From: Torpedo marmorata
Lineage: Eukaryota
Direction: 5' to 3'
Length of the DNA: 64,000 bases
NCBI GenBank assembly: GCA_977017645.1
Contig: CDRNVU010000074.1
Location: 1,984,001 to 2,048,000, forward strand
The translations under genes and the position numbers were made by a program. Positions 13,884 to 53,663 of this stretch are shown here, piece by piece. The notes under the pieces were generated by a model. It was not told the DNA's origin. It searched no databases and worked only from the letters and a program-made list of their open reading frames with translations. How positions within the stretch are numbered: the first letter of the stretch is position 1; each line of letters begins with the position of its first letter.

Positions 13884-14840
13884 AAATTGGGGGCTCATCC
13901 TAGGATTTAAATCATGGTCCATCTTGATAATTGAATGCATCCCAGTCTGGATTAAGACATTCATTTTGTGAAGTTAATTAAAAGCTAGTGTGTGTGTGTA
14001 ACGAAAAAACCACCAACAATGGATGTAAAGAAAATTTTGGAATCACGTGAACCTGATACTTTAAAAAAAGGCTAAAAAGGAACAGATAGTGGCTATAGCA
14101 ACAGAGTTGGGCATTGCGTCTGTAAACCCATCAATGAAAAAGGCGGACATTGGGAGAAAAATTGTCAAATACTATATAAAAGGGAAAAAGATTGAGAAGA
14201 GCGTGTTACAGCTGTTTTCCAAGGGAAAACCTTCTGAAAACATAAAGTTGGAACTGAATAAATTGTAATTGAATTGGGAAAAAAAATTGGACAGGGAATT
14301 GGATCAAACGAAATCAGACAGGGAATTGGAACTAAAGAGATTAGACTTGGAGGAAGCCAGAGAACAAAAAAGATTAGGCTTGGCGGCAGCCAGAGAACAA
14401 AAGAGATTAGAGAACGATAAGAAAATTAGGCAAAAGGAGCTGGAAAATATTAAGTTGGAAAATGAGAGGAGACAAGAAGAGCACCAAGATCAAATTCGTC
14501 ATCCTGTTGGGATGTATTTGGCCAGCAGAGAAGTTAGGTTGGTTCCTCCATTTGAGGAGACAGAAATAGATAAATACTTCCAGCATTTGCAGAAAGTGGC
14601 AGTGAAATTAAAATTGCCACAAGACCAATGGTCTCTTATGTTACAAAGTGTAATAAAATGAAAAGCTCTGCAAGCTCATTGTACTCTTACCACGGAGCAA
14701 GCTGCTGATTATGAAACGGTGACGAAGGCTATACCCAGGCTTATGAGTTAGTTCCAGATGGTGAAAGACAGAAGTTTAGAAATTGTAAAAGATCAGCAAC
14801 CCAATCTTACACATTTTGCTTATGAAAAGGTTGTGTGTTT
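13884..14840 (+). mobile_element. Family A gag fragment (degraded), truncated by a nested LTR at 14841
   Basis: Reads MDVKKILES...EVRLVPPFEETEIDKYFQH..., with stops and frameshifts, and ends abruptly at TGTTATGGAC. Confidence 0.88.
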
Positions 14841-16449: not shown

Positions 16450-18252
16450 TGTTATGGACCATGACTGACCATTTGGACTGCGGAGGGTCAGTAGGAAGGA
16501 TGAAGTATTTTGGAGTACACACTGGGGCCAGGTACTGAAAGAGTTAACTTCCCCAGGACTTGGTGTACCCAGACAGAGAGAGACCAGAGAGAGAGACAGA
16601 CTGTGGAAAAAGATACATTGTTGCACTTTTGCAAAAGCAGGTGCAGATCTCTGCAAAAAGCAGACAGTTGGGAGTTGCAAAGGCTAGAGAACACAGCCAA
16701 ATCCAGGCTTGTGCATAGTCAGAGAAAAGACTGGCAGAATAGCACATGGCCTCCTGTCTAAGAGGGAGGCTGATCTTGCGCTCCCTCTCACAAATTTGCT
16801 TAGAAAGAAAGAAAAATTTGTATGGTCGACAGGTTGTCAGGAAGCATTTGTCAAATTGAAAGCTATGTTATGCCACCAACCTGTGCTTAAGTCACCTAAT
16901 TTAGAACAGCCGTTTTCGTTAGCCGTGGATGGCAGCGATGAAGCTGTGGGTGCGGTGCTGTTACAGAAGAAGAACGAAGAGTACATTGACCATCCGATAT
17001 CCTACTTCTCGAAGAAGTTCAATGATCATCAAAGGAATTATTCAACGATAGAAAAAGTGTTGTTGGCTCTTGTGTAGGCTCTACAACACTTTAATGTGTA
17101 TATCTGTACAGATCAATAACCACTCATAGTGTATACTGACCATACTCCATTGGGTTTTCTTTGTAAAATGAAAAATAAGAATCGACGGTTGTTGAATTGG
17201 AGTCTAATTTTGCAAGAATATAATTTGGTAATCACACATGTAAAAGGGAAAGATAATGTAATTGCTGATTGTCTTTCTAGATGTTAAACTTTATCAATGA
17301 AAATAGTTCATATTTTGTATTTGTGGATGAACATTGTAGATGTTGTTTATATTGTGACACCTCAATTAATTTCCAAAATTTTTTTGTGGGTGGGAGGTGT
17401 TATGGACCATGACTGACCATTTGGACTGTGGACGGTCAGCAGGAAGGATGAAGTCTTTTGGAGTATACACTGGGGCCAGGTACTGAAAGAGTTAACTTGC
17501 CCAGGACTTGGTGTACCCAGAGAGAGAGAGAGCAGAGAGAGACAGGCTGTGGAAAATATACTTTGTTGCACTTTTGCAAAAGCAGGTGCAGACCTCTGCA
17601 AAAAGCAGACAGTTGGGAGTTGCAATGGCTAGAGAACACAGCCAAATCCAGGCTTGCGCATCCCAGAGAAAAGACTGGAAGAATAGCACATGGCCTCCTG
17701 TCTCAGAGAAATTCTGAGTTAAAAGCAACTTCTGTGGAGAACAGGCGTGAGATCAGCGAGACCAGCTGTGAGATCCAAGCACACGCCTCATTCAGTGGTA
17801 TACTGATCTGGATCGCAATCCCTATGAATACACAAGAAGGGAATGTCATCAGAGAAGAAAAACAAGTATTTGTAAGCATAAACAGTCATTGTCTCTCTCC
17901 AACGTTCATTCACAAGTATTTCTACAAGTACACAGAGCTGAATTTGAAACCTAAACTTAGAGATTGAATTTTGTGGACTGTATTATTCTTTTTTTTGACT
18001 GACTTGTTTTTATGACTGATCTGGGTTTTTTGGGGAAAGTTTTTTCATTTTTACATAAGGGTTGGGCACAGACTGTAATGGTCTGGGCTTTACACACACA
18101 CACACCTTTTAGATAAGAATAGTGTTTATAGACGTTTATAGTGGTGTTAATTGTTGTGAAACTATATGTTTAATTGTCTTTAATAAATATAAATTTCAAT
18201 TTTACCCCTTTTGCATTTCGTCTTCTGTCGTTGCTGGTTTGATTTTGTCACA
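16450..18252 (+). mobile_element. Internally deleted family A element: partial LTR (16450-~16760) fused to RT thumb/RNase H (~16770-17287), PPT, and 3' LTR (17398-18252)
   Basis: Reads ADLALPLTNLLRKK..LAVDGSDEAVGAVLLQ..ISYFSKKF..NYSTIEK. GTGGGTGGGAGG precedes TGTTATGG at 17398, and the LTR ends TGTCACA. Confidence 0.9.
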
Positions 18253-21477: not shown

Positions 21478-22416
21478 TGTTAAGGACCATGACTGACCAT
21501 TTGGACTGCGGACGGTCAGCAGGAAGGATGACGTCTTTTGGAGTATACACTGGGACCTGGTACTGAAAGAGTTAACTTGCCCAGGACTTCTTTTATTTAC
21601 CAGAGAGAGACATCAGGGGGAGACAAACTGTGAAAAGCACACTTGGTTTTGAACCTTTTGGAAGAAGGCTGTGTAGAGATAACTCTCTCTCTCTACTGAA
21701 AGGCTTAAGGTTAAAACTAACTCAGTGGAGGTATTGGAGCTGAAAAGCGGGAGAACTCAGTAGGATACAGGCATGTGCATCCCAGTAAAGAAGTTGGAGA
21801 ATAGCACAGAGTCTCTTGAATCAGAAAGGTCCAGGCTTGTACATCCCAGAGAGAAAGGCTGTGGGAGTAAAGAAGGCCGGATGATTCACCAGAATCCTGA
21901 GTTATGAAGGCAGTTTCTGTGAGGAACTGGCTGTGAAATCTAAGTAAACGCCTTAATTCAAAACCGGATCTGAATTCGCAATCCTTATGAAAACACAAGA
22001 AGGGAACGTCATCAGAGAAGAAAATGAAGTCAAGTATTTGTAAGCATAAACAGTCATTGTCTCTCTCCAAAGTTTATTCAGAAGTACTTTTCCAGCACAC
22101 AGAGCTGAATTTGAAACCTGAACTTAAAGAGTGAACATTTGTGGACTGTATTATTTTTTTGACTGACTTGTTTTTATGACTGACCTGGGGTTTTTGGGGA
22201 AAGTTTTTTTTTCCATTTTTACATAAGGGTTGGGCACAGACTGTAATGGTCTGGGCTTTACACACACACCTTTTAGATAAGAACAGTGTTTATAGACGTT
22301 TATATTGGGGTTAATTGTTGTGAAATTATATGTATACTTGTATGTAATAAATATAAATTTCAATTTTACTCCCTTTGCATTTCGTCTTCTGTCGTTGCTG
22401 GTTTGAATATGTAACA
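21478..22416 (+). mobile_element. Family A LTR, 5' LTR of the host element (U3 variant shared with 14841)
   Basis: TGTTAAGGACC...TGTAACA, followed by the PBS. Confidence 0.93.
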
Positions 22417-22552
22417 AAATTGGGGGCTCGTTCTCGGGATTTGAATTAAAAATACATCTTGGTAATTGAAGGAATCCCAGTCTGGTTTAAGGCATTCCTT
22501 TTGTAAAGCTAACTGAAAGCTAGTTTGTGTGTGTAACGAAAAACCAGCAACA

Positions 22553-25500
22553 ATGGATCTAAGAGTAATTTTTGCAATCACCTGAACCTGATACTTTAAA
22601 AAAGGTCAAAAAGCAACAGTAAGTGGATATAGCAACAAAGTTGGGCTTTGCGTCTGTAAAACCATCAATGAAAAAGCAGAGATTGGGAGAAAAATAGTCA
22701 AATACTATATAAAATAAAAAAGTTTGAGGAGAGCTTGTTTGAGCAGTTTCGCAAGGGTAAACCTTCTGAAAACATACAGTTGGAAATAAAGAAATTGGAA
22801 TTGGAGGCAGCCAGGGAACAAAAGAAAGTAGACACGGAATTAGAAAAAAAGAAATTGGAATTGGAACAAAAGAGATTAGACTTAGATAACGAGGATAAAA
22901 ATAGGATATATGTGCTGGAAAAGATAAAGTTGGAAAATGTGGGGAGACTAGAAGAGCACCAAGATCAAATTCGTCATCCTGCTGAGGGGATTTTGGCTAG
23001 TAGAGAAGTTAGGTTGGTTCCTCCATTTGAGGAGGCAGAAATAGAAACGTACTTCCAACATTTTGAGAAGGTGTCTGTGAAATTAAAATGGCCACAAGTC
23101 CAATGGTCTCTTATGTTACAAAGTGTAATAAAAGGAAAAGCTCAGCAAGCTTATTCTACTCTTACCACGGAGCAAGCTGCTGATTATGAAACGGAGAAAA
23201 AGGCTATACTCCAGGCTTATGAGTTAGTTCCAGAGGCTTATAGACAGAAGTTTAGAAATTTAAAAAGATCAGTAACCCAATCTTATACAGAGTTTGCCTA
23301 TGAAAAGGTTGTGTGTTTGACAGGTGGTGCACATCTAAGGCAGTAAACAATGATTACAATCAATTGAGAGAATTGATAATAATCGAGGAGATAAAAAGGT
23401 GTGTTCATGAGGATATTAAGGGATATTTAGATGAAAAGGAGGTGAAAACATCGCAAAATTCAGCTACGTTAGCAGATGAATATGCTTTAACCCACAGGCC
23501 TAAGTGGACGTCAGGCAGAATATTCCAAAAGGTCACCGTTGATAATCCAAAGCAAGTGGAAAGTAAATTTGGAAGTCGTGTTAAGGAAAGGGATGAAGGA
23601 AAGTGCAAAAGGGAAAACCATTCAGGTCCCATTTGCCACTACTGTAGGAAGGCTGGTCATATGATAGCAAGCTGTCCAGTGTTGAAAAAGAAGAGAGAAA
23701 AGGAGGCAACACCTCATGCTTGCATTCAGAGTGAGAAGAGGCATAACACCCAGGAAGGAGATACATTTACTGACAAAGTTAGAGATGTATTTAAACATTT
23801 TGTGACTGATGGTTTTGTTTCAGTTAAGGCAGGATCTAAACAAGTTCCAGTGAAAATCTTGCGAGATATTGGAGCTGCTCAGTCACTTGTGTTAGATAGT
23901 GTCTTGGAATTTTGTAAAGCTACTGAAACCGGTGACATAAATTTAATTAAAGGAGTTGGGGGTGATGTTGAGTCCATTCCTTTGCACAAAATAGTGTTGG
24001 ACTCAGACTTGGTGGAAGGACCAGTTATAATAGGAGTGAGATCAGAGTTGCCAGTAGAAGTAGTCTCACTGTTTCTAGGCAATGACTTGGCCAAGGGTAA
24101 AGTGGTTTCTGCAGTGCGAATGACCACTAAGCCAGTAATTGATAATTCAGAGAAAGACTCTGATATTCATCGGGCATATGCCATAACCAGGGCCATGTCA
24201 AAGAAAAATGTCACTGTAGAAAAGGTAGAGGAAAATAACTTAGTGAAAGAAAAAGACAGTGATAATAAAGAAAACCTGGAAAAGGTTGAGCAGTCTCCTG
24301 TGTTACACCCATCCACTGATAAGACACCTACAGGCACAGATTTGTGACTATCCCGACAGGAGCTAATGGCAAGGCAAAAGGACGATCCAGATCTTGCTGA
24401 GGTGAGGGATAAGGTTCTCTCTGAAGAGGAGATTAAAAAGGTGCCAGTGGGTTATTATAAAAAAGATGGGTTGTTGATGAGAAAGTGGAGACCATGTGAT
24501 GTTCCTGCCGATGAAGAATGGGCAGTAGTGCAGCAGGTTGTGATCTCAAAAGTATATCTGGATGCAATAATAACTTTGGCTCATAGTACACCCTTAGGTG
24601 CTCACCTTGGGGTGAAGAAAACTATAAGGAAGATAATGAAACAATTTTATTGGCCCAGTTTGAGAAGGGAGGTTGTAAGCTTTTGCCGGGCCTGTCACAC
24701 TTGTCAGGTGGTGGGTAAACCTAATCAGGGTCCCCCGGTGGCACCCTTGCAACCTATCCCTGCTTTCAGTGAGCCTTTCTCGAGAGTAATTGTGGACTGT
24801 GTTGGCCCATTGCCCAAAACCAAAGCTGGGAATGAGTATTTGTTGACAATTATGTGTGCAGCCACCAGAATTCCAGAGGTAATTCCTCCAAGAAACATAA
24901 AAGCAAAGTCCATTGTAAAGGCTATGGAAAAGTCTTTCACCTTGGTAGGTTTGCCAAGGGAAATTCAATCAGATCAGGGCAGTAATTTCATGTCAGGCGT
25001 TTTCCAACAAGTGGTTGATGGACTAGGAGTTAAACAGATTGTATCCTTTGCGTACCATCCAGAAAGTCAAGGGGCCTTCGAGAGGTTCCATTCGACTTTG
25101 AAAAACATGATTAGAACCTATTGTTGTGAAAAGGAAAAGGATTGGGATGAGGGGGTTCATTTGTTGTTATTTGCAGCGAGGGAGTCTGTCCAATTATCAC
25201 TTGGTTTTAGTCCATTCGAGTTAGCTTTCGGACATGAGGTGAGAGGTCCTTTAAGATTATCAAAATAACAGTTGATTAATAGTGATGTGCATTTACATCT
25301 GTTAGATTATGTTTCCAAATGTAAGGATCGGTTACATAGGGCTTGTGAGATGGCAAAGGAGAATTTAAAGGCCACTCAACAGAGAATGAAGGTTTGGTAT
25401 GATCGAAAGGCTAAGATGAGAACTTTTAAACCTGGTGAGAACGTATCAGTTCTGTTTCCCATCCATTCAAATCCTCTTAGGGCTAGCATTTCAGGACCAT

Positions 25501-26383
25501 ATAGAGTTAAGTCAAAAATTAATGATGTCACTTATCTCAGAGAAACCCCTAATCGCAGACGAGACACACAGGTGTGTCCTGTGAATATGATTAAGCCATA
25601 TTTTGAACAGGTGCCGGGAAAAAGGACTGAACATTTATCAGATGTGCTGGTTATTGACAGAGGTAAGGAGGAGACAGATAAAACCAGTTTCAGAGAGGGT
25701 CCTGGGACTGTTAATTCTCAGGGTTATGCAGTAGGACAGGGGAAGTTGGCGCCAGAAGAGGCAAAGGCTGTGACTATTTCTGAGTTCCCTGTTCCAACTG
25801 GTAAGAAAACTCTGAAAAGGTTCCTGGGACTGATTCGTTACTTCCGCAAGTTCTGTAAAATCTTTGCGGATCTTGCGCTTCCTGTCACAAATTTGCTTGG
25901 AAAGAAAGAAAAATTTGTATGGTCAAAAGGTTTTCAGAAAACATTTGTCAAATTGATAGCCATGATATGCCACCACCCTGTGCTTAAGTCACCTAATTTA
26001 GAACAGCCGTTTCTTTCGCCGTGGATGCCAGCGATGAAGCTGTGGGTGCGGTGCTGTTACAGAAGAAGAACGAAGAAGACATTGACCATCCGGTATCTTA
26101 CTTCTCAAAAAAGTTCAATGATCATCAAAGGAATTATTCAACCATAGAAAAAGATTTGTTGGCTCTTCTGTTGTCTCTGCAACACTTTGATGTGTATATC
26201 TGTACAGCTCAGGAACCACCAATAGTGTATACTGACCATAATCTATTGGTTTTTCTTTGTAAAATGAAAAATAAGAATCGACGGTTGTTGAATTGGAGTC
26301 TAATCTTGCAAGAATATGATTTGGTAATAACACATATAAAAGGGAAATATAATATAATTGCTGATTGTCTTTCTATATGTTAA
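22553..26383 (+). pseudogene. Gmr1-like Gag-PR-IN-(RT core deleted)-RT thumb-RNase H polyprotein, copy 1, with stops and frameshifts
   Basis: Capsid/SCAN-like LQAYELVPEAYRQKFR; Zn knuckle CHYCRKAGHMIASC; protease LRD(I/T)GAAQS; integrase H..H..CRACHTC, DCVGP, SDQG, ERFHSTLK. Then KPY, about 35 aa, TVNSQGYAVGQG, RFLGLIRYFRKF, and RNase H DASD..NYSTIEK..YTDH..ADCLS. No YxDD motif. Confidence 0.93.
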
Positions 26384-26448
26384 ACTTTATCAATGAAAAT
26401 AGTTCATATTTTGTATTTGTGGATTAACATTGTAGATTTTGTTTATAT

Positions 26449-27346
26449 TGTTATTGACCATGACTGACGATTTGAACTGCGGACGGTCAGCAGGAAGGAT
26501 GAAGTCTTTTGGAGTATACACTGGGGCCAGGTACTGAAAGAGTTAACTTCCCCAGCTACTTGGTGTACCCAGACAAGATACATTGTTGCACTCTTGGTGT
26601 ACCCAGACAGAGAGAGACCAGAGAAAGAGAGACAGACTGGATAAGATACATTTGTTTCACTTTTTCAAAAAGCAGGGGCAGATCTCCGCAAAGCAGACAC
26701 AGTTGTGAGATGCATGGCTACAAGACACAGCCAAATCCAGGCGTGTGCAAAGTCAGAGGAGAAAGACTGACAGAATAGCACATGGCCTCCTGTCTCAGAG
26801 AGATTCTGAGAAAAAGCAACTTCTGTGGAGAACAGGCGTGAGATCAGCGAGACAAGCTGTGAGATTCAAGCATACGCCTAAATCAGTGGTATACTGATCT
26901 GGAACTTGCAATCCTTATGAACCTACAAGAAGGGAACGTCATCAGAGAAGAAAACAAGTATTTGTAAGCATAATCAGTCATTGTCTCTCTCCAACGTTCA
27001 TTCAGAAGTACTTCTACCAGACACAGAGAAAAAGTTGAAGCCTGAACTTAGAGAGTGGAATTTGTCGACTGTATTATCCTTTTTTTTTTGACTGACTTGT
27101 TTTTTATGACTGACCTGGGGTTTTTGGGGAAAGTTTTTTTTTCCATTTTTACATAAGGGTTGGGCACAGACTGTAATGGTCTGGGCTTTACACACACACC
27201 TTTTAGATAAGAACAGTGTTTATAGACGTTTATAGTGGGGTTAATTGTTGTGAAATTATATGTATACTTGTATGTAATAAATATAAATTTCAATTTTACT
27301 CCCTTTGCATTTCGTCTTCTGTCGTTGCTGGTTTGAATATGTAACA
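26449..27346 (+). mobile_element. Family A chimeric LTR (5' part like 31381, 3' part like 21478)
   Basis: Starts TGTTATTGACC like 31381. Its 3' part carries 21478-specific variants: GAACAGTG, TGTATACTTGTATG, TTTTACTCCC and a PBS reading GCTCGTTCTCGGG. Confidence 0.9.
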
Positions 27347-27482
27347 AAATTGGGGGCTCGTTCTCGGGATTTGAAATAAAAATACATCTTGGTAATTGAA
27401 GGAATCCCAGTCTGGTTTAAGGCATTCCTTTTGTAAAGCTAACTGAAAGCTAGTGTGTGTGTGTAACGAAAAACCAGCAACA

Positions 27483-30400
27483 ATGGATCTAGGAGTAATT
27501 TTTGGAATCACCTGAACCTGATACTTTAAAAAAGGTCAAAAAGCAACAGTAAGTGGATATAGCAACAAAGTTGGGCTTTGCGTCTGTAAAACCATCAATG
27601 AAAAAGCAGAGATTGGGAGAAAAATAGTCAAATACTATATAAAATAAAAAAGTTTGAGGAGAGCTTGTTTGAGCAGTTTCGCAAGGGTAAACCTTCTGAA
27701 AACATACAGTTGGAAATAAAGAAATTGGAATTGGAGGCAGCCAGGGAACAAAAGAAAGTAGACACGGAATTAGAAAAAAAGAAATTGGAATTGGAACAAA
27801 AGAGATTAGACTTAGATAACGAGGATAAAAATAGGATATATGTGCTGGAAAAGATAAAGTTGGAAAATGTGGGGAGACTAGAAGAGCACCAAGATCAAAT
27901 TCGTCATCCTGCTGAGGGGATTTTGGCTAGTAGAGAAGTTAGGTTGGTTCCTCCATTTGAGGAGGCAGAAATAGAAACGTACTTCCAACATTTTGAGAAG
28001 GTGTCTGTGAAATTAAAATGGCCACAAGACCAATGGTCTCTTATGTTACAAAGTGTAATAAAAGGAAAAGCTCAGCAAGCTTATTCTACTCTTACCACGG
28101 AGTAAGCTGCTGATTATGAAACGGAGAAAAAGGCTATACTCCAGGCTTATGAGTTAGTTCCAGAGGCTTATAGACAGAAGTTTAGAAATTTAAAAAGATC
28201 AGTAACCCAATCTTATACAGAGTTTGCCTATGAAAAGTTTGTGTGTTTGACAGGTGGTGCACATCTAAGGCAGTAAACAATGATTACAATCAATTGAGAG
28301 AATTGATAATAATCGAGGAGATAAAAAGGTGTGTTCCTGAGGATATTAAGGGATACTTAGATGAAAAGGAGGTGAAAACATCGCAAAATTCAGCTAAGTT
28401 AGCAGATGAATATGCTTTAACCCACAAGCCTAAGTGGACGTCAGGCAGAATATTCCAAAAGGTCACCGTTGATAATCCAAAGCAAGTGGAAAGTAAATTT
28501 GGAAGTCGTGTTAAGGAAAGGGATGAAGGAAAGTGCAAAAGGGAAAACCATTCAGGTCCCATTTGCCACTACTGTAGGAAGGCTGGTCATATGGTAGCAA
28601 GCTGTCCAGTGTTGAAAAAGAAGAGAGAAAAGAAGGCAACACCTCATGCTTGCATTCTGAGTGAGAAGAGGCATAACACCCAGGAAGGAGATACATTTAC
28701 TGACAAAGTTAGAGATGTATTTAAACATTTTGTGACTGATGGTTTTGTTTCAGTTAAGGCAGGATCTAAACAAGTTCCAGTGAAAATCTTGCGAGATATT
28801 GGAGCTGCTCAGTCACTTGTGTTAGATAGTGTCTTGGAATTTTGTAAAGCTACTGAAACCGGTGACAAAAATTTAATTAAAGGAGTTGGGGGTGATGTTG
28901 AGTCCATTCCTTTGCACAAAATAGTGTTGGACTCAGACTTGGTGGAAGGACCAGTTATAATAGGAGTGAGATCAGAGTTGCCAGTAGAAGAAGTCTCACT
29001 GTTTCTAGGCAATGACTTGGCCAAGGGTAAAGTAGTTTCTGCAGTGCGAATGACCACTAAGCCAGTAATTGATAAGTCAGAGAACGACTCTGATATTCAT
29101 CGGGCATGTGCCATAACCAGGGCCATGTCTAAGAAAAATGTCACTGTAGAGAAGGCAATGGAAAATAACTTAGTGAAAGAAAAAAACAGTGATAATCAAG
29201 AAAACCTGGAAAAGGTTGAGCAGTCTCCAGTGTTACACCCATCCACTGATAAGACACCTAAAGGCACAGATTTGTGACTATCCCGAAAGGAGCTAATGGC
29301 AAGGCAAAAGGACGATCCAGATCTTGCTGAGGTGAGGGATAAGGTTCTCTCTGAAGAAGAGATTACAAAGGTGCCATTAGGTTATTATGAAAAAGATGGG
29401 GTGTTGATGAGAAAGTGGAGACCACGTGATGTTCCTGCCAATGAAGAATGGGCAGTAGTGCAGCAGGTTGTGATCCCTAAAGTATATAGGGATGAAATAA
29501 TAACTTTGGCTCATAGTACACCCTTAGGTGGTCATCTTGGGGTGAAGAAAACTATAAGTAAGATAATGAAACAATTTTATTGGCCCAGTTTGAGAAGGGA
29601 GGTTGTAAGCTTTTGCCGGGCCTGTCACACTTGTCAGGTGGTGGGTAAACCTAATCAGGGTCACCCGGTGGCACCGTTGCAACCTATCCCTGCTTTCAGT
29701 GAGCCTTTACCGAGAGTAATTGTGGACTGTGTTGGCCCATTGCCCAAAACCAAAGCGGGGAATGAGTATTTGTTGACAATTATGTGTGCAGCCACCAGAT
29801 TTCCAGAGGTAATTCCTCCAAGAAACATAAAAGCAAAGTCCATTGTAAAGGCTATGGAAAAGTCTTTCACCTTGGTAGGTTTGCCAAGGGAAATTCAATC
29901 AGATCAGGGCAGTAATTTCATGTCAGGCGTTTTCCAACAAGTGGTTGATGGACTAGGAGTTAAACAGATTGTATCCTCAGCGTACCATCCAGAAAGTCAA
30001 GGGGCCTTGGAGAGGTTCCATTCGACTTTGAAAAACATGATTAGAACCTATTGTTGTGAAAAGGAAAAGGATTGGGATGAGGGGGTTCATTTGTTGTTAT
30101 TTGCAGCGAGGGAGTCTGTCCAATTATCACTTGGTTTTAGTCCATTCGAGTTAGCTTTCGGACATGAGGTGAGAGGTCGTTTAAGACAATCAAAATAACA
30201 GTTGATTAATAGTGATGTGCATTTAAATCTGTTAGATTATGTTTCCAAATGTAAGGATCGGTTACATAGGGCTTGTGAGATGGCAAAGGAGAATTTAAAG
30301 GCCACTCAACAGAGAATGAAGGATTGGTATGATCGAAAGGCTAAGATGAGAACTTTTAAACCTGGTGAGAACGTATTAGTTCTGTTTCCCATCCATTCAA

Positions 30401-31315
30401 ATCCTCTTAGGGCTAGCATTTCAGGACCATATAGAGTTAAGTCAAAAATTAATGATGTCACTTATCTCAGAGAAACACCTAATCGCAGACGAGACACACA
30501 GGTGTGATATCTGTGAATATGATTCAGCCATATTTTGAACAGGTGCCGGGAAAAAGGACTGAACATTTATCAGATGTGCTGGTTATTGACAGAGGTAAGG
30601 AGGAGACAGATAAAACCAGTTTCAGAGAGGGTCCTGGGACTGTTAATTCTCAGGGTTATGCAGTAGGACAGGGGAAGTTGGCGCCAGAAGAGGCAAAGGC
30701 TATGACTATTTCTGAGTTCCCTGTTCCAACTGGTAAGAAAACTCTGAAAAGGTTCCTGGGACTGATTCGTTACTTCCGCAAGTTCTGTAAAATCTTTGCG
30801 GATCTTGCGCTCCCTGTCACAAATTTGCTTAGAAAGAAAGAAAAATTTGTATGGTCAAAAGGTTTTCAGAAATCATTTGTCAAATTGATAGCCATGTTAT
30901 GCCACCACCCTGTGCTTAAGTCACCTAATTTAGAACAGCCGTTTCTTTCGCTGTGGATGCCAGCGATGAAGCTGTGGGTGCGGTGCTGTTACAGAAGAAG
31001 AACGAAGAGGACATTGACCATTCGGTATCCTACTTCTCAAAAAAGTTCAATGATCATCAAAGGAATTATTCAACCATAGAAAAAGATTTGTTGGCTCTTC
31101 TGTTGTCTCTGCAACACTTTTATGTGTATATCTGTACAGCTCAGGAACCACCCATAGTGTATATTGACCATAATCCATTGGTTTTTCTTTGTAAAATGAA
31201 AAATAAGAATCGACGGTTATTGAATTGGAGTCTAATCTTGCAAGAATATGATTTGGTAATAACACATATAAAAGGGAAATATAATATAATTGCTGATTGT
31301 CTTTCTATATGTTAA
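27483..31315 (+). pseudogene. Gmr1-like polyprotein lacking the RT core, copy 2 (tandem duplicate of copy 1, period ~4930 bp)
   Basis: ORFs are offset by exactly 4930 (22735/27665, 23313/28243, 24366/29296) and share inactivating stops (e.g. GTDL*, SK*). Confidence 0.93.
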
Positions 31316-32415
31316 ACTTTATCAATGAAAATAGTTCATATTTTGTATTTGTGGATTAACATTGTAGATTTTGTTTATATTGTTATTGACCATGACTGAC
31401 CATTTGAACTGCGGACGGTCAGCAGGAAGGATGAAGACTTTTGGAGTATACACTGGGGCCATGTACTGAAAGAGTTAACTTCCCCAGCTACTTGGTGTAC
31501 CCAGACAAGATACATTGTTGCACTCTTGGTGTACCCAGACAGAGAGAGACCAGAGAAAGAGAGACAGACTGGATAAGATACATTTGTTTCACTTTTGCAA
31601 AAAGCAGGGGCAGATCTCCGCAAAGCAGACACAGTTGCGAGATGCATGGCTACAAGACACAGTCAAATCCAGGCGTGTGCAAAGTCAGAGGAGAAAGACT
31701 GACAGAATAGCACATGGCCTCCTGTCTCAGAGAAATTCTGAGAAAAAGCAACTTCTGTGGAGAACAGGCGTGAGATCAGCGAGACAAGCTGTGAGATTCA
31801 AGCATACGCCTAAATCAGTGGTATACTGATCTGGAACTTGCAAGCCTTATGAACCTACAAGAAGGGGACGTCATCAGAGAAGAAAACAAGTATTTGTAAG
31901 CATAATCAGTCATTGTCTCTCTCCAACGTTCATTCAGAAGTACTTCTACCAGACACAGAGAAAAAGTTGAAGCCTGAACTTAGAGAGTGGATTTTGTCGA
32001 CTGTATTATCCTTTTTTTTTTGACTGACTTGTTTTTTATGACTGACCTGGGGTTTTTGGGGAAAGTTTTTCCATTTTTACATAAGGGTTGGGCACAGACT
32101 GTAATGGTCTGGGCTTTACACACACACACATACACCTTTTAGATATGAATAGAGTTTGTAGACGTTTATAGTGGGGTTAATATTTGTGAAATTATATGTT
32201 TACTTGTGTTTGATAAATAATAGTTTCAATTTTACCCCTTTTGCATTGCGTCTTCTGTCGTTGCTGGTTTGAATTTGTAACAAATTGGGGGCTCGTCATG
32301 GGATTTGAAACAAATTCCATCTTGGTAATTGAAGGAATCTTAGTTTGGTTTAAGGCATTCCTTTTGGTAAAGCTAATTAAAAGCTAGTGTGTGCGTAACA
32401 AAAAAACGAGCAACA

Positions 32416-35400
32416 ATGGATGTAGAAAATTTTTTGGAATCACCTGAACCTGATACTTTAAAAAAGGCGAAAAAGGAACAGTTAGTGGCTACAGCAAAAG
32501 GGTTGGGCATTGCTTCTGTAAAACCATCTAAGAAAAAGGCAGAGAATGGGAGAAGAATAGTCAAATAAAATATAAATGAAAAAAAATTTGAGGAGAGCAT
32601 GTTAGATCAGTCTCCCAAGGGTAAACCTTCTGAAAACATACAGTTGGAATTAAAGAAATTTGAATTGGAGCCAGCCAGGGAACAAAAGGAATTGTAGGCA
32701 GCCAGGGAACAAAAGGAATTGGAGGCAGCCAGGGAACAAAAGAAATTAGAGGCAGACAGGGAACAAAAGAACAGGGAATTGGAACAAAAGAAATTAGAAT
32801 TGGAATTGGAACGAAAGAAATTAGACATGAAAATGGAATTGGAACAGAAGAGATTAGACTTAGAGAACGATGAGAATAATAGGAGATATGAGCTGGAAAA
32901 GATGAGGTTGGAAAATGAGAGGAGACAAGATCAAATTCGTCATCCTGCTGAGGGGTTTTTGGCTCGTTGAGAAGTTAGGTTGGTTCCTCCATTTATGGAG
33001 GCAGAAATAGATAAGTACTTCCAACATTTTGAGAAAGTGGCTGTGAAAATAAAATGGCCACAAAGTGTAATAAAAGGAAAAGCTCAGCAAGATTATTCTA
33101 CTCTCACCACAGAGCAAGCTGCTGATTATGAAACGGTGAAAAAGGCTATACTCCAGGCTTATGAGTTAGTTCCAGAGGCTTAAAGACAGAAGTGTAGAAG
33201 TTTAAAAAGATCAGCAACCCAATATTATACAGAGTTTGCCTATGAAAGGTTTGTGTGTTTTGAGAGGTGATGCACATCTAAGGAAGTAAACAATGATTAC
33301 AATCAATTGAGAGAATTGATAATAATCGAGGAGATAAAAAGGTGTGTTCCTGAGGATATTAAGGCATACTTAGATGAAAAGGAGGTGAAAACTTGGCAAA
33401 CTTCAGCTAAGTTAGGAGATGAATATGCTTTAACCCACAAGCCTAAGTGGACGTCAGGTAGAATTTTCCAAAATGTCACGGTGGATAATCAGAAGCAAGT
33501 GGAAAGTAAATTTGGAAGTGGTGTTAAGGAAAGGGATGAAGGGAAGTGGAAAAGGGAAAACAATTCCAGTCCCATTTGCCACTACAGTAGGAAGGCTGGT
33601 CATATGCTAGCAAGCTGTCCAGTGTTGAAACAGAAGAGAGAAAAGGATGCAACACCTAATGCTTGCATTCAGAGTGAGAAGATGCATAACACCCAGGAAG
33701 GAGATAAATTTACTGACAAAGTTAAAGATGTATTTAAACATTTTGTGACTGATGGTTTTGTTTCAGTTAAGGCAGGATCAAAACAAGTGTCAGTGAAAAT
33801 CTTGCGAGATACTGGAGCTGCTCAGTCACGTGTTAGATAGTGTCTTGGAATTTTGTGAAGCTTCTGACACCGGTGACATAAATCTAATAAAATGAATTGG
33901 TGGTGAAGTTGAGTCCATTCCTTTGCACAAAATAGTATTGAACTCAGACTTGGTGGAAGGACTAGTTATAAAAGGAGTGAGATCAGAGTTGCCTGTAGAA
34001 GGAGTCTCACTCTTGTTAGGCAATGTCTTGGCCAAGGATAACGTAGTTCCTGCAGTGAGAATGACCACTAAGCCAGTCATTGATAAGTCAGAGAAACACT
34101 CTGATATTTATCCGGCATGTGCCATAACCAGGGCCATGTCTAAGAAAAATGTCACTGTAGAGAAGGCAGTGGAAAATAACTTGGTAAAAGAAAAAGAAAC
34201 TGATAATCAAGAAAACCTGGAAAAGGTTGAGCAATCTCCTATGTTACACCCATCCACTGATAAGACACCTAAATGCACAGATTTGTCACTATCCCGACAG
34301 GAGTTAATAGCAAGGCAAAAGGACGATCCTGATCTTGTTGAGATGAGTGATAAGGTTCTCTCTGAGGAGGAGATTAAGAAGGTGCCAGTAGGTTATTATG
34401 AAAAAGATGGGGTGTTGATGAGAAAGTGGAGACCACGTGATGTTCCTGCCAATGAAGAATGGGCAGTAGTGCAGCAGGTTGTGATCCCTAAAGTATATAG
34501 GGATGAAATAATAACTTTGGCTCATAGTACACCCTTAGGTGGTCATCTTGGGGTGAAGAAAACTATAAGGAAGATAAGGAAACAATTTTATTGGCCCAGT
34601 TTGAGAAGGGAGGTTGTAAGCTTTTGCCGGGCCTGTCACACTTGTCAGGTGGTGGGTAAACCTAATCAGGGTCCCCCGGTGGCACCCTTGCAACCTATCC
34701 CTGCTTTCAGTGAGCCTTTCTCGAGAGTAATTGTGGACTGTGTTGGCCCATTGCCCAAAACCAAAGCGGGGAATGAGTATTTGTTAACAATTATGTGTGC
34801 AGCCACCAGAATTCCAGAGGCCATTCCTCTGAGAAACATAAAAGCAAAGTCCATTGTAAAGGCTGTGGAAATGTTTTTCACCTTGGTAGGTTTGCCAAGG
34901 GAAATTCAATCAGATCAGGGCAGTAATTTCATGTCAGGCGTTTTCCAACAAGTGGTTGATGGACTAGGAGTTAAACAGATTGTATCCTCTGCGTACCATC
35001 CAGAAAGTCAAGGGGCTTTGGAGAGGTTCCATTCGACTTTGAAAACCATGATTAGAACCTATTGTTGTGAGAAGGAAAAGGATTGGGATGAGGGGGTTCA
35101 TTTGTTGTTATTTGCAGCGAGGGAGTCTGTCCAAGATTCACTCGGTTTTTGTCCATTCGAGTTAGTTTTCGGACATGAGGTGAGAAGTCCTTTAAGATTA
35201 TTAAAAGAACAATGGATTAATCGTGATGTGCATTTAAATCTGTTAGATTATGTTTCCAAATGTAAGGATCGGTTACATAGGGCTTGTGAGATGGCAAAGG
35301 AGAATTTAAAGGCCACTCAACAGAGAATGAAGGTTTGGTATGATCGAAAGGCGAAGATGAGAACTTTTAAACCTGGTGAGAACGTATTAGTTCTGTTTCA

Positions 35401-36325
35401 CATCCATTCAAATCCTCTTAGGGCTAGATTTTCAGGACCCTATAGAGTTAAGTCAAAAATTAGTGATGTCACCTATGTCATAGAAACACCTAAACGCTGA
35501 CGAGACACACAGGCCTGTCATGTGAATATGATTAAGCCATATTTTGAAAAGGTGCCACATAAAGGGACTGAAAATTTACCAGAGGTACTGGTTATTGTCA
35601 GGGGTAAGGAGGAGACAGATAAAACTAGTTTCAGAGAGCGTCATGGAACTGTTAATTCTCTGAGTTATGTAGTAGGACAGGCGAAGTTGGCGCCAGTAGG
35701 GGCAAAGTTTGTCGCTATTTCCGAGTTCCCTGTTCCAACTGGTAAGAAAACTCTGAGGAGGTTCCTGGGACTGATTGGCTACTACCGCAAGTTCTGTAAA
35801 AACTTTGCTGATCTTGCGCTCCCTCTCACAAATTTGCTTAGAAAGAAAGAGAAATTTGTATGGTCTACAGGTTTTAAGGAAGCATTTGTCAAATTGAAAG
35901 CCATTTTATGCCACCAACCTGTGCTTAAGTCACCTTATTTAGAACAGTCGTTTTCTTTAGCCGTGGATGCGAGCGATGAAGCTGTGGGTGCGGTGCTGTT
36001 ACAAAAGAAGAACGAAGAGGACATTGACCATCCGGTATCCTACTTCTAGAAGAAGTTCAATTATCATCAAAGGAATTGTTCAACTATACAGAAAGAGTTG
36101 TTGGCTCTTGTGTTGGCTCTACAACACTTTGATGTGTATATCTGTTCAGCTCAAAAACCACTCATAGTGTATACTGACCATAATCCATTGGTTTTTCTTT
36201 GTAAAATGAAAAATAAGAATCGACGGTTGTTGAATTGGAGTCTAATTTTGCAAGAATATAATTTGGTAATCACTCATATAAAAGGGAGAGATAATGTAAT
36301 TGCTGATTGTCGTTCTAGATGTTAA
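32416..36325 (+). pseudogene. Gmr1-like Gag-PR-IN-(RT core deleted)-RNase H polyprotein, copy 3
   Basis: ORFs at 33307 (LRDTGAAQS), 33923 (525 aa, integrase), 35522 (KPYF...RHGTVNSLSYVVGQ...FLGLIGYYRKF...VDASD) and 36098, with several stops. Confidence 0.92.
32662..32769 (+). repeat. 27-bp in-frame tandem repeat (ELEAAREQK) x4 in the Gag coiled coil
   Basis: Units read GAATTGGAGGCAGCCAGGGAACAAAAG; one has mutated to TAG. Confidence 0.85.
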
Positions 36326-37359
36326 ACTTTATCAATGAAAATAGTTCATATTTTGTATTTGTGGATGAACATTGTAGATTTTGTTTATATTCTGACACCT
36401 TACTTACTTTCCTAAATTTTGATCTTGCAGACCAAAATTTCCTTTGTGGGTGGGAGGTGTTATGGACCATGACTGACCATTTGGAAAGCGGACGGTCAGC
36501 AGGAAGGATGAAGTCTTTTGGAGTATACACTGGGGCCAGGTACTGAAAGAGTTAACTTCCCCAGCTACTTGGTGTACCCAGACAAGATACATTGTTGCAC
36601 TCTTGGTGTACCCAGACAGAGAGAGACCAGAGAGAGACAGTCAGACGAGACAAGATACATTTGTTTCACTTCTGCAAAAAGCAGGGGCTGATCTCTGCAA
36701 AGCAGACACAGTTGTGAGTTGCAAGGCTACAAGACACAGCCAAATCCGGGCGTGTGCAAAGTCAGAGGAGAAAGACTGACAGAATAGCACATGGCCTCCT
36801 GTCTCAGAGAAATTCTGAGAAAAAGCAACTTCTGTGGAGAACAGGCGTGAGATCAGCGAGACTAACTGTGAGATTCAAGCATACGCCTAAATCAGTGTTA
36901 TACTGATCTGGAACTTGCAATCCTTATGAACCTACAAGAAGGGGACGTCATTAGAGAAGAAAACAAGTATTTGTAAGAATAAACAGTCATTGTCTCTCTC
37001 CAACGTTCATTCAGAAGTACTTCTACCAGACACAGAGAAAACGTTGAAGCCTGAACTTAGAGAGTGGATTTTGTCGACTGTATTATCCTTTTTTTTTTGA
37101 CTAACTTGTTTTGTATGACTGACCTGGGGTTTTTAGGGAAGGTTTTTCCATTTTTACATAAGGGTTGGGCACAGACTGTAATGGTCTGGGCTTTACACAT
37201 ACACACATACACCTTTTAGATAAGAATAGAGTTTATAGACGTTTATAGTGGGGTTAATTGTTGTGAAATTATATGTTTACTTGTGTTTAATAAATAATAA
37301 TTTCAATTTTACCCCTTTTGCATTGCGACTTCTGTCGGTGCTGGTTTGAATTTGTAACA

Positions 37360-38273
37360 ATATTGTGACACCTCAATTAATTTCCAAACTTTTGTTCTTG
37401 CAGACCAAAATTTTCTTTGAGGGCGGGAGGTGTTATGGACCATGACTGACCATTTGGACTGCGGACAGTCAGCAGGAAGGATGAAGTCTTTTGGAGTACA
37501 CACTGGGACCAGGTACTGAAAGAGTTAACTTGTCCAGGACTTGGTGTACCCAAAGAGAGAGAGAGCAGAGAGAGACAGGCTGTGGAAAAGATACTTCGTT
37601 GCACTTTTGCAAAAGCAGGTGCAGACCTCTGAAAAAGCAGGCAGTTTGGAGTTGCAAAGGCTAGAGAACACAGCCAAATCCAGGCTTGTGCATTCCAGAG
37701 AAAAGGCTGGAAGAATAGCACATGGCCTCCTGTCTCAGAGAAATCCTGAGTTAAAAACAACTTTTGTTGAGAACAGGCGTAAGCAAAGCGAGACCAGCTG
37801 TGAGATCCAAGCACACGCCTCAATCAGTGGTATACTGATTTGGAGTCGCCATCCTCGTGAATCTCTACCAAAAGGTAAAGTCATCAGAGAAGAAAAAATC
37901 AAGCCAAGTATTCGTAAGCATAAACAGTCATTGTCTCTCTCCAACGTTCGTTGAAAAGTCCTTCTAACAGCACACAGAGCTGAATTTGGAACCTGAACTT
38001 AGAGAGTGAATGTGTGTGGACTGTATTATATTTTTTGACTGACTTAGGGTTTTTGGGGAACGTTTTTCCATTTTTACATGAGGGTTTGGCACAGACTGTA
38101 ATGGTCTGGTCTTTACATACACACACCTTTTTGATAAGAATAGTGTTTATAGATGTTTATAGTGGGGTTAATTATTGTAAAATTATATGTTTTATTGTCT
38201 TTAATCAATATAAATTTCAATTTTACCCCTTTTGCATTGCGTCTTCTGTCGTTGGTGGTTTGATTTTGTAACA
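37360..38273 (+). mobile_element. Remainder of the host 3' UTR and PPT (37360-37430) and 3' LTR (37431-38273)
   Basis: ATATTGTGACACC...GAGGGCGGGAGG, then TGTTATGGACC...TGTAACA. Confidence 0.92.
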
Positions 38274-38607
38274 CAATGAATCCCCGGATGATCCATTTAG
38301 ATGTATTTTATAAGTAACATTATATTACTTTCTTTTTTCTTTTTTCTTTTTTTTTTGTAGATTTTAGAAAGGGTAGGGAATGTAAGAGGAGGGAGTGGTA
38401 GAGGGTGGGATTAGAAATATTAAGTAATAATTTTAATTTGAAATGTTTGAAAAATGTTATAAGGGTTTGGGGATTAAGGGAAGGGGTAGATACACTATGT
38501 AATACAATATAACTATAACATATTTTTCTGTAGTTAATAATGTATATTATTCATGTATGTATTACTGTGTGAAAATTTAAAATTTAAAATAAAATATTTC
38601 AAAAAAC
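38274..38607 (+). mobile_element. L1 3' UTR and poly(A) remnant
   Basis: Similar to 20820-21078 (TATTACTGTG..GAAAATTTAAAATT..AATAAAAT..AAAAAA). Confidence 0.7.
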
Positions 38608-46511: not shown

Positions 46512-47551
46512 CTAGAGTTGGAGGGGTAACAACTGTTTGTCGACCTGGTGGCACGAGTCATGTGCTCCGCATACATATTTTCTTATGACAGCAGCGAGCA
46601 CAGAGCCTGTCGTGCGTGGTGTGGTTTCTCGATTTGCTCTTCTGCTGCCGCTCTGGAGGAATCTGCTTATCGCTAATATTGGATACTTCAGAAATCGTTT
46701 CAACTCCTCTCTGAACTTGTGCTGAGTCGCTGCGTAAATACAGGTGTTTGTGCAACAGCTGAGAAACAGGAGCATATATCCCACCTCCTGCATGATAAAC
46801 ACCGGGTCGCTGTAACCCGAGTAATACAGGGTGTTTGTGATCCGGTAGTAAACGAAATGAAAGACAAACGTCAGCCACAACAGCACAAAACTGCCGGAAA
46901 CCGTGAAAAGTAAAATGATGGACTTTTTCCTGTTCTCCATTTCAGAGTCCTTGGAGGTCTCCGGGTTATTGTGACGACAGAGAAATCTACGCGCTCTGCT
47001 CGCCGCCACAATGAATCTAACGGTCAGTACATTGAGCGACACGATGAGAACGAAGGGCAGGAAAGGGGTTGCGATGCTATTGAAGGCTGAAAATATTACC
47101 CACAACGGGGCGGTGTAGAAACTGGATTTTGTGTGACAATACCACGGCCTGCCGTTCGTTATGTACAAGGGTTCAAACTTAAAGTACCAGGGGATGTTTT
47201 GCAAGCACCCCAGGGCGAATACCGTCCGAACCACAGCGGCCGCCACCTTTTGCCTGCAGTACCTGTGTTTCAGTTTTCGCCAGCAAATAGCTACAAAACT
47301 ATCGAACGTGAAAGCGACTGTTAACCAGACTGAAACGTCCTGGGAGGCGTAAATTAGAACCATTTTTAAACTGCACATCGGCGTGATCGACAGGTAGCTA
47401 CCTGGAAAATAGATACCGACTATCCTGTTGAGTATAACTCCAGTGATTAGGACGAGAAGGTCGGCCGCTGCCATTCCCACCAGATAGCAGGTGATGCATT
47501 TGGAGAGGCCGCATTTTCCCCGGGACAGAATTACAATGGCGATAACATTGG
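46512..47551 (-). CDS. GPR139/GPR142-like class A GPCR, exon 2
   Basis: Acceptor TTTTCTTTCAG|CC (phase 1), then ANVIAIVILSRGKCGLSKCITCYLVGMAAADLL...WLTVAFTFDSFVAIC...DSEMENRKKSIILLF...LSCCTNTCIYAATQ, open to the stop at 46512. Paralogous to 1443-2805. Confidence 0.92.
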
Positions 47552-47814
47552 CTGAAAGAAAACGAGATGAAATAAGACGAAGTGAAATAAGAAATAATTC
47601 TAGCTACTGCCAAACTGAAACCACACGAAAATTGGAGGAACAACCCGTCATATAACGCCTGGGCAACATCCAACCGGATGGTATTATTATTCCAATTTTC
47701 CGCTGATCTCGTACCCTGCCCAACAGAAACCCTGAATGGGATGGGCGGCTTATTCCGACTCGTACGCTTCAAAATGCCTCTATATTACAGCACTGGACCA
47801 ATGCTAAAAGGGAT

Positions 47815-52358: not shown

Positions 52359-52589
52359 TAATCGGGATTCGAGGGCGTATTGAGGGCAAGAAGGGCTTCC
52401 TACAGGCTTCGGCGCTGAAGGCTTACGGATCATCAAGGTCATAGATCACTGCTTCAAATTCTGTCTTTCTAGAAAGTCAAATTTCTTCAGAGGTTTTCAG
52501 AGTTTTTCAGAGGTTTTAAGTTTTAAGTTTCCCCAGTCTGGTAAAAATCTGATTCAAAATGTCTATCTGCTTTCATTATATATTTCTGA

Positions 52590-53663
52590 CATCAGGTGAC
52601 GTGAACACCGTAGTTCCATAGAAAAAGAGTGTCAGTTTGGAAACGCAGCGTCCAGGAAGACAAAGCCAATAATGGAAATGAAGTGGATTTTAATTGATCG
52701 CAATGCAATGTGTGGTTTCTCAAAGCATTTTTATATACAACCAGCATTATGCTGTAGCAACTGTTGCAAACTCAAGTGCCATTTCAGTGACACGTGCCTA
52801 GACGCTTTGGAATCATAAACTACTTAAGCCTTTTAAAACAGAGTTAGAGTCATATCTTGTTATGGATGTAAGTGGTTTTGAAGAACGGCAAGTGATTTCG
52901 CAGAAATTAAACTGAAACCGAGGTGATGTCACGTCATATAATGTCATAGACCTATATACTGAAGGCAGCGAGACATTTTAGGGAGAACTGAAGAAAACAT
53001 AACATCCTGGAAAGACAGGATTGGAGCAGTAATCTCTGGAAAGAGACGGAGATGCTGTTCTCTTGTAAACTCCTTATCATAGGATATACACAACATAAGT
53101 GGCTTTTAAATAAGTAATACCATTTGCGACTGCACTGTTAAGAAAAGAGAGGCAGCCTCATTTGTGTCAAGAAGATGGTCACGCCTGCTTAAGGAAGAAA
53201 TCATCGTGAAGATCACAGTTCCGCAACACTAACAAGATAGGGGGAAACGTCTGAAAACACTCGTAAAAAGAATATCTCTCTGGAAAACAACTCATCAAAG
53301 GACGTGTGAGTTTGAAAGAAATCTGATGCTCCACTCTTGCCTTATAATTACTTCTGAACCACAATTTAAAAGGATGCTCAAGTTCAACAAGATGATTGAA
53401 CCTGGACTTTAAAATTGACTTTTTAGACTCAAGCTTAAACAGTAGTGGTTTAGATTCTAACACACACAAAACACACACACACACACCCACACATATGTAC
53501 ATTTGCGCATATTGGGAATTAAGTAAGAGTTAAGTTTAGAGTTAAATAATAAATATTATGTGATTAATAGTTTAATTAAAAAAAATTTGAATTTACCATT
53601 GTCTGGTAAATTTTCCATTGTTGTTCCTTTGATAGTACTAGCAAGGTTTGGTAGTTCGTAACA
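52590..53663 (+). mobile_element. LTR of a second Gypsy family (family B); 5' boundary approximate
   Basis: Reverse-complement homologous to 56757-57929; ends GTTCGTAACA. Confidence 0.75.

Follow-up and report, generated by a model that had tools for sequence, protein, structure and literature searches.

Main finding and structure of the inserted unit

We identified a nested LTR retrotransposon in a 64,000-nucleotide stretch of the Torpedo marmorata genome (GenBank assembly GCA_977017645.1, contig CDRNVU010000074.1, positions 1,984,001 to 2,048,000), hereafter the window. Our reading, to which we assign a probability of about 0.82, is that a unit from a lineage without the polymerase core of reverse transcriptase (RT) was copied in trans and inserted into the 3' UTR of a host copy that was itself RT-less, and that a tandem duplication followed. 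The inserted unit and its junctions comprise the following features (positions within the window):

31377..31380 (+), left ATAT of the 4-bp target duplication, at the end of the host 3' UTR
31381..37359 (+), RT-less unit, LTR-internal-LTR, 5,979 bp, inserted in a sister copy's 3' UTR
31381..32282 (+), LTR C, the unit's 5' LTR, 902 bp, TG...CA, with a 34-bp-period U3 duplication
32286..32304 (+), primer binding site (PBS), tRNA-Pro, decayed, first 12 nt match
36448..36457 (+), polypurine tract (PPT) of the unit, PPT-like GGGTGGGAGG
36458..37359 (+), LTR D, the unit's 3' LTR, 902 bp, 95.5% identical to C
37360..37430 (+), right ATAT (37360-37363), rest of the host 3' UTR and host PPT, 71 bp

The preliminary description of this DNA had claimed TG...CA ends and an ATAT target site duplication (TSD), and both were recovered: the left junction reads GTTT-ATAT|TGTTA (31373-31385) and the right junction TAACA|ATAT-TGTGACACC (37355-37372), with an exact ATAT at both flanks. 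The uninterrupted family UTR occurs as GTTTATATTGTGACACC at 17345-17361, and the unit's own UTR has it at 36383-36399 with one mismatch; rejoining the two flanks yields this family UTR with exactly four bases repeated. We consider this rejoining a stronger argument than the probability of ATAT by chance alone, which is approximately 0.01 from base composition. When 21 pairs of left and right LTR flanks were compared at 4-6 bp, exact matches were found only in B/D and C/D, and A/D had one mismatch. TSDs of 4-6 bp are reported for LTR insertions in an extract of PMC8220671; a TSD length specific to Gmr1 was not found in the literature searched. Short microhomologies occur at both junctions of the unit and, as a caveat to the left one, the UTR and the LTR start share the three bases TGT.

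The PBS and PPT claimed earlier were located at the positions listed, and an intact 18-nt PBS-Pro at 15776-15793 agrees at 18/18 positions with the PBS-Pro probe for MLV given in PMC4587795. The hallmarks of integrase-type insertion (TG...CA termini, 4-bp TSD, near-identical LTRs, PBS and PPT) are all present. The unit's own 3' UTR (36326-36457) is uninterrupted, and the 71-bp tail beyond LTR D is identical to it at 61/71 positions, where approximately three mismatches would be expected (P=0.002); the first 30 bp of the tail are 29/30 identical to another copy. The junctions, and a tail that is not of the unit's own type, support the proposals that the unit integrated whole and that this gave rise to the LTR-71 bp-LTR arrangement.

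Alignment of LTRs C and D, which had been suggested as a check, gave 41 substitutions and no indels over 902 bp (K2P 0.047), and D is only 85.5% identical to the host LTR on its 3' side (E). The U3 duplication is shared by C (31488/31522) and D (36565/36599) as described, but is not confined to them, since a third LTR, B, carries it too (26556/26590); the motif occurs in single copy at 16556 and was absent from the other LTRs in a search allowing three mismatches. The expectation that C and D are sisters fails when taken literally (C/B 97.0%, C/D 95.5%; the 5' LTR tree gives (B,C),D) and stands in the 3' LTR tree (support 85), B being a later chimeric duplicate of C.

Coding content and family assignment

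The internal region of the unit contains the following remnants:

32417..33830 (+), decayed gag (coiled-coil repeats, SCAN-like capsid, CCHC knuckle) into protease
33824..35551 (+), C-terminal part of protease, linker and integrase (H2C2 zinc finger, D-D-E core, C-terminal domain), two stops
35552..35641 (+), integrase-RT linker remnant, running up to the in-frame junction of the RT deletion (about 35636-35641)
35642..36325 (+), RT C-terminal (thumb) region and RNase H, one stop

Three stops lie in the gag-protease region (32854-33828), with a frameshift near 33824-33828. Compared with RT-bearing relatives, approximately 250 aa of the RT polymerase core are missing in frame, while the unit retains integrase, thumb and RNase H. 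The earlier claim of RT loss was confirmed by the absence of any RVT_1 match or YxDD motif in the unit's pol and by an integrase-to-RNase H spacing of 154 aa, where an RT-bearing relative has 405 aa. Three of four RNase H acidic motifs were matched in both the unit and an RT-bearing relative, the fourth reading KELLA. All three internal regions that reach the deletion site share the identical in-frame junction.

We also searched for an RT-less class conserved across phyla, which we rejected. In a set of 369 proteins, the integrase end and RNase H occurred in order in 214, of which 21 had short spacing (the query being counted in both figures); the breakpoints of the other 20 vary, no protein visibly sharing both of the unit's, and these 20 may be gene-model artefacts.

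We provisionally assign the unit to the Gmr1-type Ty3/Gypsy retrotransposons, with Gag-PR-IN-RT-RH order. Integrase (aa 197-534) and the RNase H downstream share one frame and are collinear with RT-bearing relatives, and the integrase is 71% identical to that of an RT-bearing Pristis pectinata polyprotein with the same domain order. A SCAN domain in gag gave weak Pfam matches (E=0.0076 and 0.00024) that fall short of the curated cut-off, and the gag aligns to a SCAN-bearing relative (P0125). An integrase tree of 22 chosen sequences, which covers integrase only and includes no reference Gmr1 sequence, places the unit among relatives with integrase before RT, near the Pristis protein. In extracts of the Gmr1 literature, the clade is likewise described as having a SCAN-like capsid followed by PR, IN and RT-RH (10.1101/2025.03.03.638093; PMC8220671) in a single Gag-Pol frame (PMC11117352). 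Unlike the clade, the unit has no RT fingers/palm or YxDD, and its LTRs of approximately 900 bp compare with 337-518 bp in four pufferfish Gmr families tabulated in an extract of PMC11117352.

The host copy and its tandem duplication

The surroundings of the unit are made up of host-derived segments:

21478..22416 (+), LTR A, host 5' side, third U3 subtype
22417..26448 (+), copy 1 of the host's internal region, without RT and cut at ATAT 26445-26448
26449..27346 (+), LTR B, chimera, resembling C up to about 27100 and A from 27134
27347..31380 (+), host internal region, copy 2, RT-less, cut at ATAT, 98.0% identical to copy 1
37431..38273 (+), LTR E, host 3' side, U3 subtype unlike C/D (85-86%) and A (79%)

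The left junction, although present as claimed, is not unique: the ATAT|TG sequence and a third LTR of the C/D subtype also occur at 26445-27346. The 5' part of LTR B differs from C at 10/685 positions and its 3' part from A at 1/213. Divergence across the duplication (90/4930, 1.8%) is lower than that between C and D (4.5%; P=4e-6). These comparisons show a 4.93-kb tandem duplication by unequal LTR-LTR exchange after insertion of the unit, leaving B as a chimeric LTR. The second junction is unlikely to be an assembly artefact in which two haplotypes stand in tandem, because internal copies 1 and 2 differ at 79/4032 positions and join inside the chimeric LTR.

The host is not an intact element. 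LTRs A and E are 79% identical, and flank comparison yielded no TSD for the host, nor for the cluster at 12951-18252; the two flanks therefore do not provably derive from one host molecule.

Timing of RT loss and alternative explanations

Around the deletion junction, the unit and the host copies differ at 27-29/200 and at 47/400 and 49/400 positions (12-14%), which ranks this stretch with the most divergent of the internal region, whereas a junction copied after insertion would be expected to show at most 18/400 differences (<=4.5%; P about 1e-8). Within the stretches aligned to P0125 no stops or frameshifts common to the unit and host copies were found, which leaves the RT deletion as the sole common lesion seen. 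We conclude from these sequence comparisons that the RT deletion preceded integration. The template would then already have been RT-less, and reverse transcription most likely took place in trans with the RT of an intact relative, in agreement with the preliminary description. Two independent RT-less insertion events, one with a TSD, are seen in the 64 kb, and the other family copies in the window stop short of the junction region. No RT-core match of the unit's family occurs in the window, and protein searches gave no RT-bearing partner above approximately 74% identity, the best relatives being 71-74% identical at the protein level (among the matches listed; best 120, 120 and 150).

The unit might instead have inserted with its RT and lost it afterwards through gene conversion, with the RT-less copy next to it as donor. 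Three tandem copies adjoin, and a probable conversion tract from the unit to copy 2 in the integrase region covers 182 identical bp with 11 informative sites in a row (P about 0.13 for such a run, corrected), so conversion between neighbours probably occurs at the locus, though not at the deletion junction, where divergence far above the ceiling makes this route extremely doubtful; we reject it. An RT-less lineage would also be unnecessary if RT were spliced out or skipped on the full-length RNA of an autonomous element, each copy arising afresh. The identical in-frame junction in copies 8% apart and the GAG|GGT of the host copies, which resembles an exon-exon join, fit such an origin, but RT-bearing relatives read LTVNLAKSEF before the right breakpoint, with no hint of a pyrimidine tract and AG acceptor (judged from codons of relatives, not of the true parent), and we regard it as distinctly unlikely.

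It is very improbable that there was no insertion at all and that two unrelated deletions in a tandem array left a coincidental ATAT overlap. Other deletions do occur in this tandem array (e.g., 16768/16769), and microhomology exists for both events: on the left, a 71-bp deletion between TGT triplets would have taken out a PPT, and on the right, a deletion from the LTR-PBS spacer to the UTR could have used ATTG. Against this, the two events would need ends no more than 4 bp apart, a PPT precedes D, D resembles C rather than E, and copy 2 matches copy 1 at 98% identity and the unit at 92%. Autointegration yields the same two junction types, and further same-orientation LTR-into-gag junctions lie at 14841 and 16450. 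That circles of one cDNA recombined into the chromosome afterwards is nonetheless scarcely credible, with neither the 71-bp tail (61/71) nor LTR E (85.5%) of the unit's type and the upstream internal region 8% diverged from the unit's.

For the preferred reading, insertion of a unit copied in trans, we propose the following history. A non-autonomous Gmr1-type lineage carries an in-frame deletion of the RT polymerase core, and one of its copies, the host, would already have been resident in the chromosome. RNA from another RT-less copy, whose LTR, PBS-Pro and PPT were intact, was probably packaged and reverse-transcribed by an intact relative's RT, giving cDNA with two identical LTRs. As the junctions show, integrase inserted this product in the same orientation in the host 3' UTR, 71 bp before the host 3' LTR, duplicating ATAT. 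Unequal exchange between LTR C and host LTR A, at about 27100-27134, later produced the 4.93-kb tandem, chimeric B and the second ATAT|TG. The outer ends of the host appear to reflect separate rearrangement, and all copies are decayed today.

Comparable systems and significance

IAP elements are betaretrovirus-like ERVs. Extracts of PMC6466679 describe a mouse IAP type (1-delta-1) that resembles our unit in having an internal deletion with one fused frame, a need for proteins in trans and normal insertion as an LTR unit. Its deletion removes 1.9 kb with parts of gag and pol, compared with approximately 0.75 kb and only the RT core here, where Gag, PR, IN and RNase H are retained; a cis role is reported for the IAP fusion protein. 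Wheat RLG_Sabrina and RLG_WHAM (extract of PMC9744471) also lack RT, retain their PBS and LTR ends, and move with the help of an autonomous partner; they are without integrase as well, number thousands of copies and have an identified partner, whereas our unit keeps integrase and RNase H and only two insertion events are seen. In Drosophila, LTR ectopic recombination gives LTR-int-LTR-int arrays with shared LTRs (extract of PMC5932611); here, in contrast, the exchange involved two LTR subtypes of a nested pair, duplicated the junction of the insertion and produced a chimeric LTR that can be dated.

Selection could conceivably, though in our view improbably, keep the RT-less lineage, which would supply its own Gag, protease, integrase and thumb-RNase H in one frame and borrow only polymerase activity, its RNase H working beside the polymerase of a helper. 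Such a division of labour is conceivable in view of Ty3, whose polymerase and RNase H activities are contributed by separate subunits (PMC5371799); Ty3 subunit B nonetheless retains fingers and palm. Omega in pol between the unit and the host copies was about 0.65 (P=0.009) and 0.70 (P=0.03), but it was 0.77 in a neutral control pair and 1.14-1.16 in gag.

Deletion derivatives mobilised in trans are already known, as are nested insertions and tandems with shared LTRs, and the in-frame layout of everything but the polymerase is a modest variant that rests on two insertion events. We found no description of non-autonomous forms of the vertebrate Gmr1 family in the literature searched. The weight of the finding would rise if many RT-less copies genome-wide proved to be under selection for the integrase and RNase H that they retain. 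The locus illustrates how a nested insertion can seed a tandem array and a swap of U3 subtypes between LTRs, and it records, cleanly and in a form that can be dated, the integration of an RT-deficient LTR element of the vertebrate Gmr1 family after RT loss.

Element family and RT deletion

At 21478-38273, a single LTR retrotransposon family is represented by five LTRs and three internal regions, each in + orientation:

21478-22416 (+), LTR A
22417-26448 (+), copy 1 of the host, the RT-less sister element
26449-27346 (+), LTR B
27347-31380 (+), copy 2 of the host
31381-32282 (+), LTR C
32283-36457 (+), internal region of the RT-less unit bounded by LTRs C and D
36458-37359 (+), LTR D
37431-38273 (+), LTR E

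The internal region of the unit codes for a decayed Gag, a protease, an integrase (IN; H2C2 finger, rve core and C-terminal domain) and then RNase H. The unit shares integrase-first order and a SCAN-like capsid with Gmr1-like elements, in which integrase precedes RT/RNase H (PMC8220671; 10.1101/2025.03.03.638093). Its closest named relative among the matches listed is an RT-bearing polyprotein of the sawfish Pristis pectinata (P0125; 71% identity in IN, 74% in thumb/RNase H), to which the unit's pol query (P0001) aligns at residues 362-916 and 1198-1424; this relative points to a cartilaginous fish as the probable source of the DNA. Only isolated stops interrupt the reading frame that runs from integrase into RNase H, and the integrase D-D-E and RNase H acidic motifs are retained. 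The preliminary description had assigned the unit an RT deletion, which is borne out by the spacing between the IN end and RNase H (154 aa vs 405 in an RT-bearing relative) and by the absence of YxDD from its pol. The intervening 30 residues resemble the start of a normal IN-RT linker, which points to one in-frame deletion junction near 35636-35641; the junction is identical in all three internal regions extending that far. The retained RT piece aligns with Ty3 RT (4OL8) from residue 259 onward (E=3e-19). Downstream of RNase H the UTR is ~130 bp, and no envelope-sized frame was found there ahead of the 3' LTR.

The family LTRs at 12951-61419 fall into at least three U3 subtypes with conserved ends and strongly different mid-U3 regions (~45-70% identity for LTR A against C or E types). 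Within 12951-64000 the family's LTR pieces (11) and internal pieces are without exception on the + strand (P ~0.01-0.02, taking 7-8 independent events). Three self-nestings occur in 25 kb (14841, 16450 and 31381). At 14841 and 16450, a family LTR begins in the same orientation within another copy's gag, and no right-hand partners or TSDs were found for these two junctions. The LTR fragment starting at 16450 is fused straight to the RNase H-proximal region at 16768/16769, a large internal deletion. Other features of the window are:

1817-2407, tandem repeat (116-bp period, 5.1 copies, 97% matches)
46512-47603 (-), single open frame for a class A GPCR (7tm_1, E=1.6e-17), presumably akin to the GPR139-like receptors, a group that is expanded in sharks and rays
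52439-53659 and 56757-57794, inverted pair (~70% similar), probably LTRs of another family
58063-58726 (-), RNase H fragment adjoining one of the inverted stretches
58073-58645 (-), fragment of another Gmr1-type element (69% identical)

Insertion junctions and LTR pair

The family 3' UTR, intact at 17345-17361, breaks off at 31377 after GTTT-ATAT, where LTR C opens with TGTTA; LTR D closes with TAACA at 37359 and the UTR picks up again as ATAT-TGTGACACC. LTRs C and D, 902 bp each, align without indels; 41 positions are substituted, 18 by transition and 23 by transversion (K2P 0.047). A PBS lies 3' of LTR C and a PPT upstream of LTR D; the family PBS copy at 15776-15793 matches, at 18/18 positions, the MLV PBS-Pro probe printed in PMC4587795. 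Among 21 flank pairs tested, an exact TSD occurred only where D was paired with B or C. The 71 bp between LTRs D and E are the remainder of the host UTR: 61 of the 71 positions agree with the unit's own UTR, for which ~3 mismatches would be expected were the tail the unit's (P=0.002), and their start is 29/30 identical to the copy at 17349. Both the integration of the unit as a whole in a sister copy and the origin of the LTR-71 bp-LTR arrangement from that insertion, as originally proposed, are upheld by these features. Two separate deletions without an insertion are a possible source of both junctions because of a TGT microhomology on the left and a likeness to the LTR-PBS spacer across ATTG on the right, but they would have to converge to 4 bp or less.

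Tandem duplication and host copy

A second GTTT-ATAT/TGTTA junction, missed by the preliminary description, lies ahead of LTR B at 26441-26453, so that the left junction at 31377 is present but has a counterpart. LTR B has the same U3 duplication as LTR C, differs from it at 10 positions over the first 685 bp and carries the C variants against D; over the last 213 bp it differs from A at one, with the C-like to A-like switch between 27100 and 27134. In trees of nine LTRs (fragments at 16450 and 45729 left out), the 5' part grouped B with C and these two with D (support 91, 100), and the 3' part paired A with B and C with D (100, 85). The predicted sister relationship of C and D thus appears in the 3' part, but in the 5' part C is nearest to B, which is explained by the origin of B in a post-insertion exchange of C with A. 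Between copies 1 and 2 there are 79 differences in 4032 positions, and the pooled tandem duplicate is 1.8% diverged vs 4.5% for C/D (P=4e-6). The duplication arose by unequal exchange between LTRs C and A after the insertion, corresponding to the shared-LTR tandem mechanism of PMC5932611.

LTRs A and E are 79% identical, differ in U3 subtype and have outer flanks (ATTT, CAAT) without a TSD; the host is therefore not one intact integration. The CAAT right after LTR E (38274-38277) equals the LTR-PBS spacer of E's closest relative at 60549 (93%); E is possibly a recombinant, or an LTR that once stood at a 5' end. The receiving copy is RT-less, as first described, and has the same deletion junction, but is not itself intact. 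The host copy came first, the unit's insertion second and the tandem duplication third, with the host ends rearranged apart from that sequence. We put a probability of roughly 0.8 on an RT-less Gmr1-type unit having been reverse-transcribed in trans, inserted by integrase into a sister copy and later partly tandem-duplicated.

RT loss before integration

Any sequence that the unit took over from its neighbour once inserted should be no more diverged than the LTR pair, 4.5%. Host copies 1 and 2 depart from the unit at 27/200 and 29/200 positions, respectively, within 100 bp of the deletion junction, and at 47/400 and 49/400 within 200 bp (P ~1e-6 to 1e-9); these differences speak strongly against post-insertion conversion from the neighbouring copy as the source of the deletion and place RT loss before integration, as had been suggested. 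The internal regions of unit and host are 92% identical overall. In the parts that align to P0125, every stop and frameshift belongs either to the unit or to the host pair, with none in common. Junction divergence and private lesions together argue for two distinct RT-less templates, integrated separately, each probably otherwise open in frame. In the zinc-finger region of IN, a tract of 182 bp (29377-29559; unit 34388-34570) looks converted from unit to copy 2, and gene conversion probably operates at this locus, only not at the deletion junction.

A cDNA with two equal LTRs requires RT, so RT would have been supplied in trans, and reverse transcription of the unit in trans is most likely. 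No RT-core match was found in the window by tblastn with five RT-bearing relatives, nor a close RT-bearing partner among the matches listed in protein searches. The RT-less state before integration supports the earlier proposal of a trans step; that step and its helper are what we infer from it.

With the neutral expectation drawn from the local substitution spectrum, pol showed a synonymous excess in two unit-host comparisons (51 synonymous and 104 nonsynonymous, omega ~0.65, P=0.009; 45 and 99, omega 0.70, P=0.03). The neutral control, in which copies 1 and 2 were compared, gave 0.77, and gag gave 1.14-1.16; taken singly, neither IN nor RNase H reached significance. NG86 values were 0.55-0.61 for unit vs host and 0.67 for the control. 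Any signal of selection in pol could also stem from recombination with a helper. Transversions exceeded transitions in both neutral comparisons (23 to 18 for C vs D; 45 to 34 for the 22417-31380 copies), an excess unusual in vertebrate nuclear DNA.

Comparison with known elements

RT-gapped predicted proteins are not rare, making up 20 of the 213 others with both IN and RNase H; their breakpoints vary, and some are perhaps gene-model artefacts. No description of an RT-less Gmr1 lineage retaining IN and RNase H was found in the open-access literature, although it may already be catalogued in Repbase or Dfam. IAP 1-delta-1 is likewise a trans-moving deletion derivative, whose in-frame gag-pol fusion is reported to help in cis (PMC6466679). 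Wheat Sabrina/WHAM, also trans-mobilised, is described in PMC9744471 as being without integrase as well as RT, whereas the unit retains integrase. A bolder and improbable reading, in which selection keeps an RT-less lineage that borrows only polymerase and whose own RNase H works beside the helper's, would have as its sole basis the division of polymerase and RNase H activities between different Ty3 subunits (PMC5371799). Trans-moving deletion derivatives are already well described; the unit works like known non-autonomous LTR elements, among which its protein layout is a variant.
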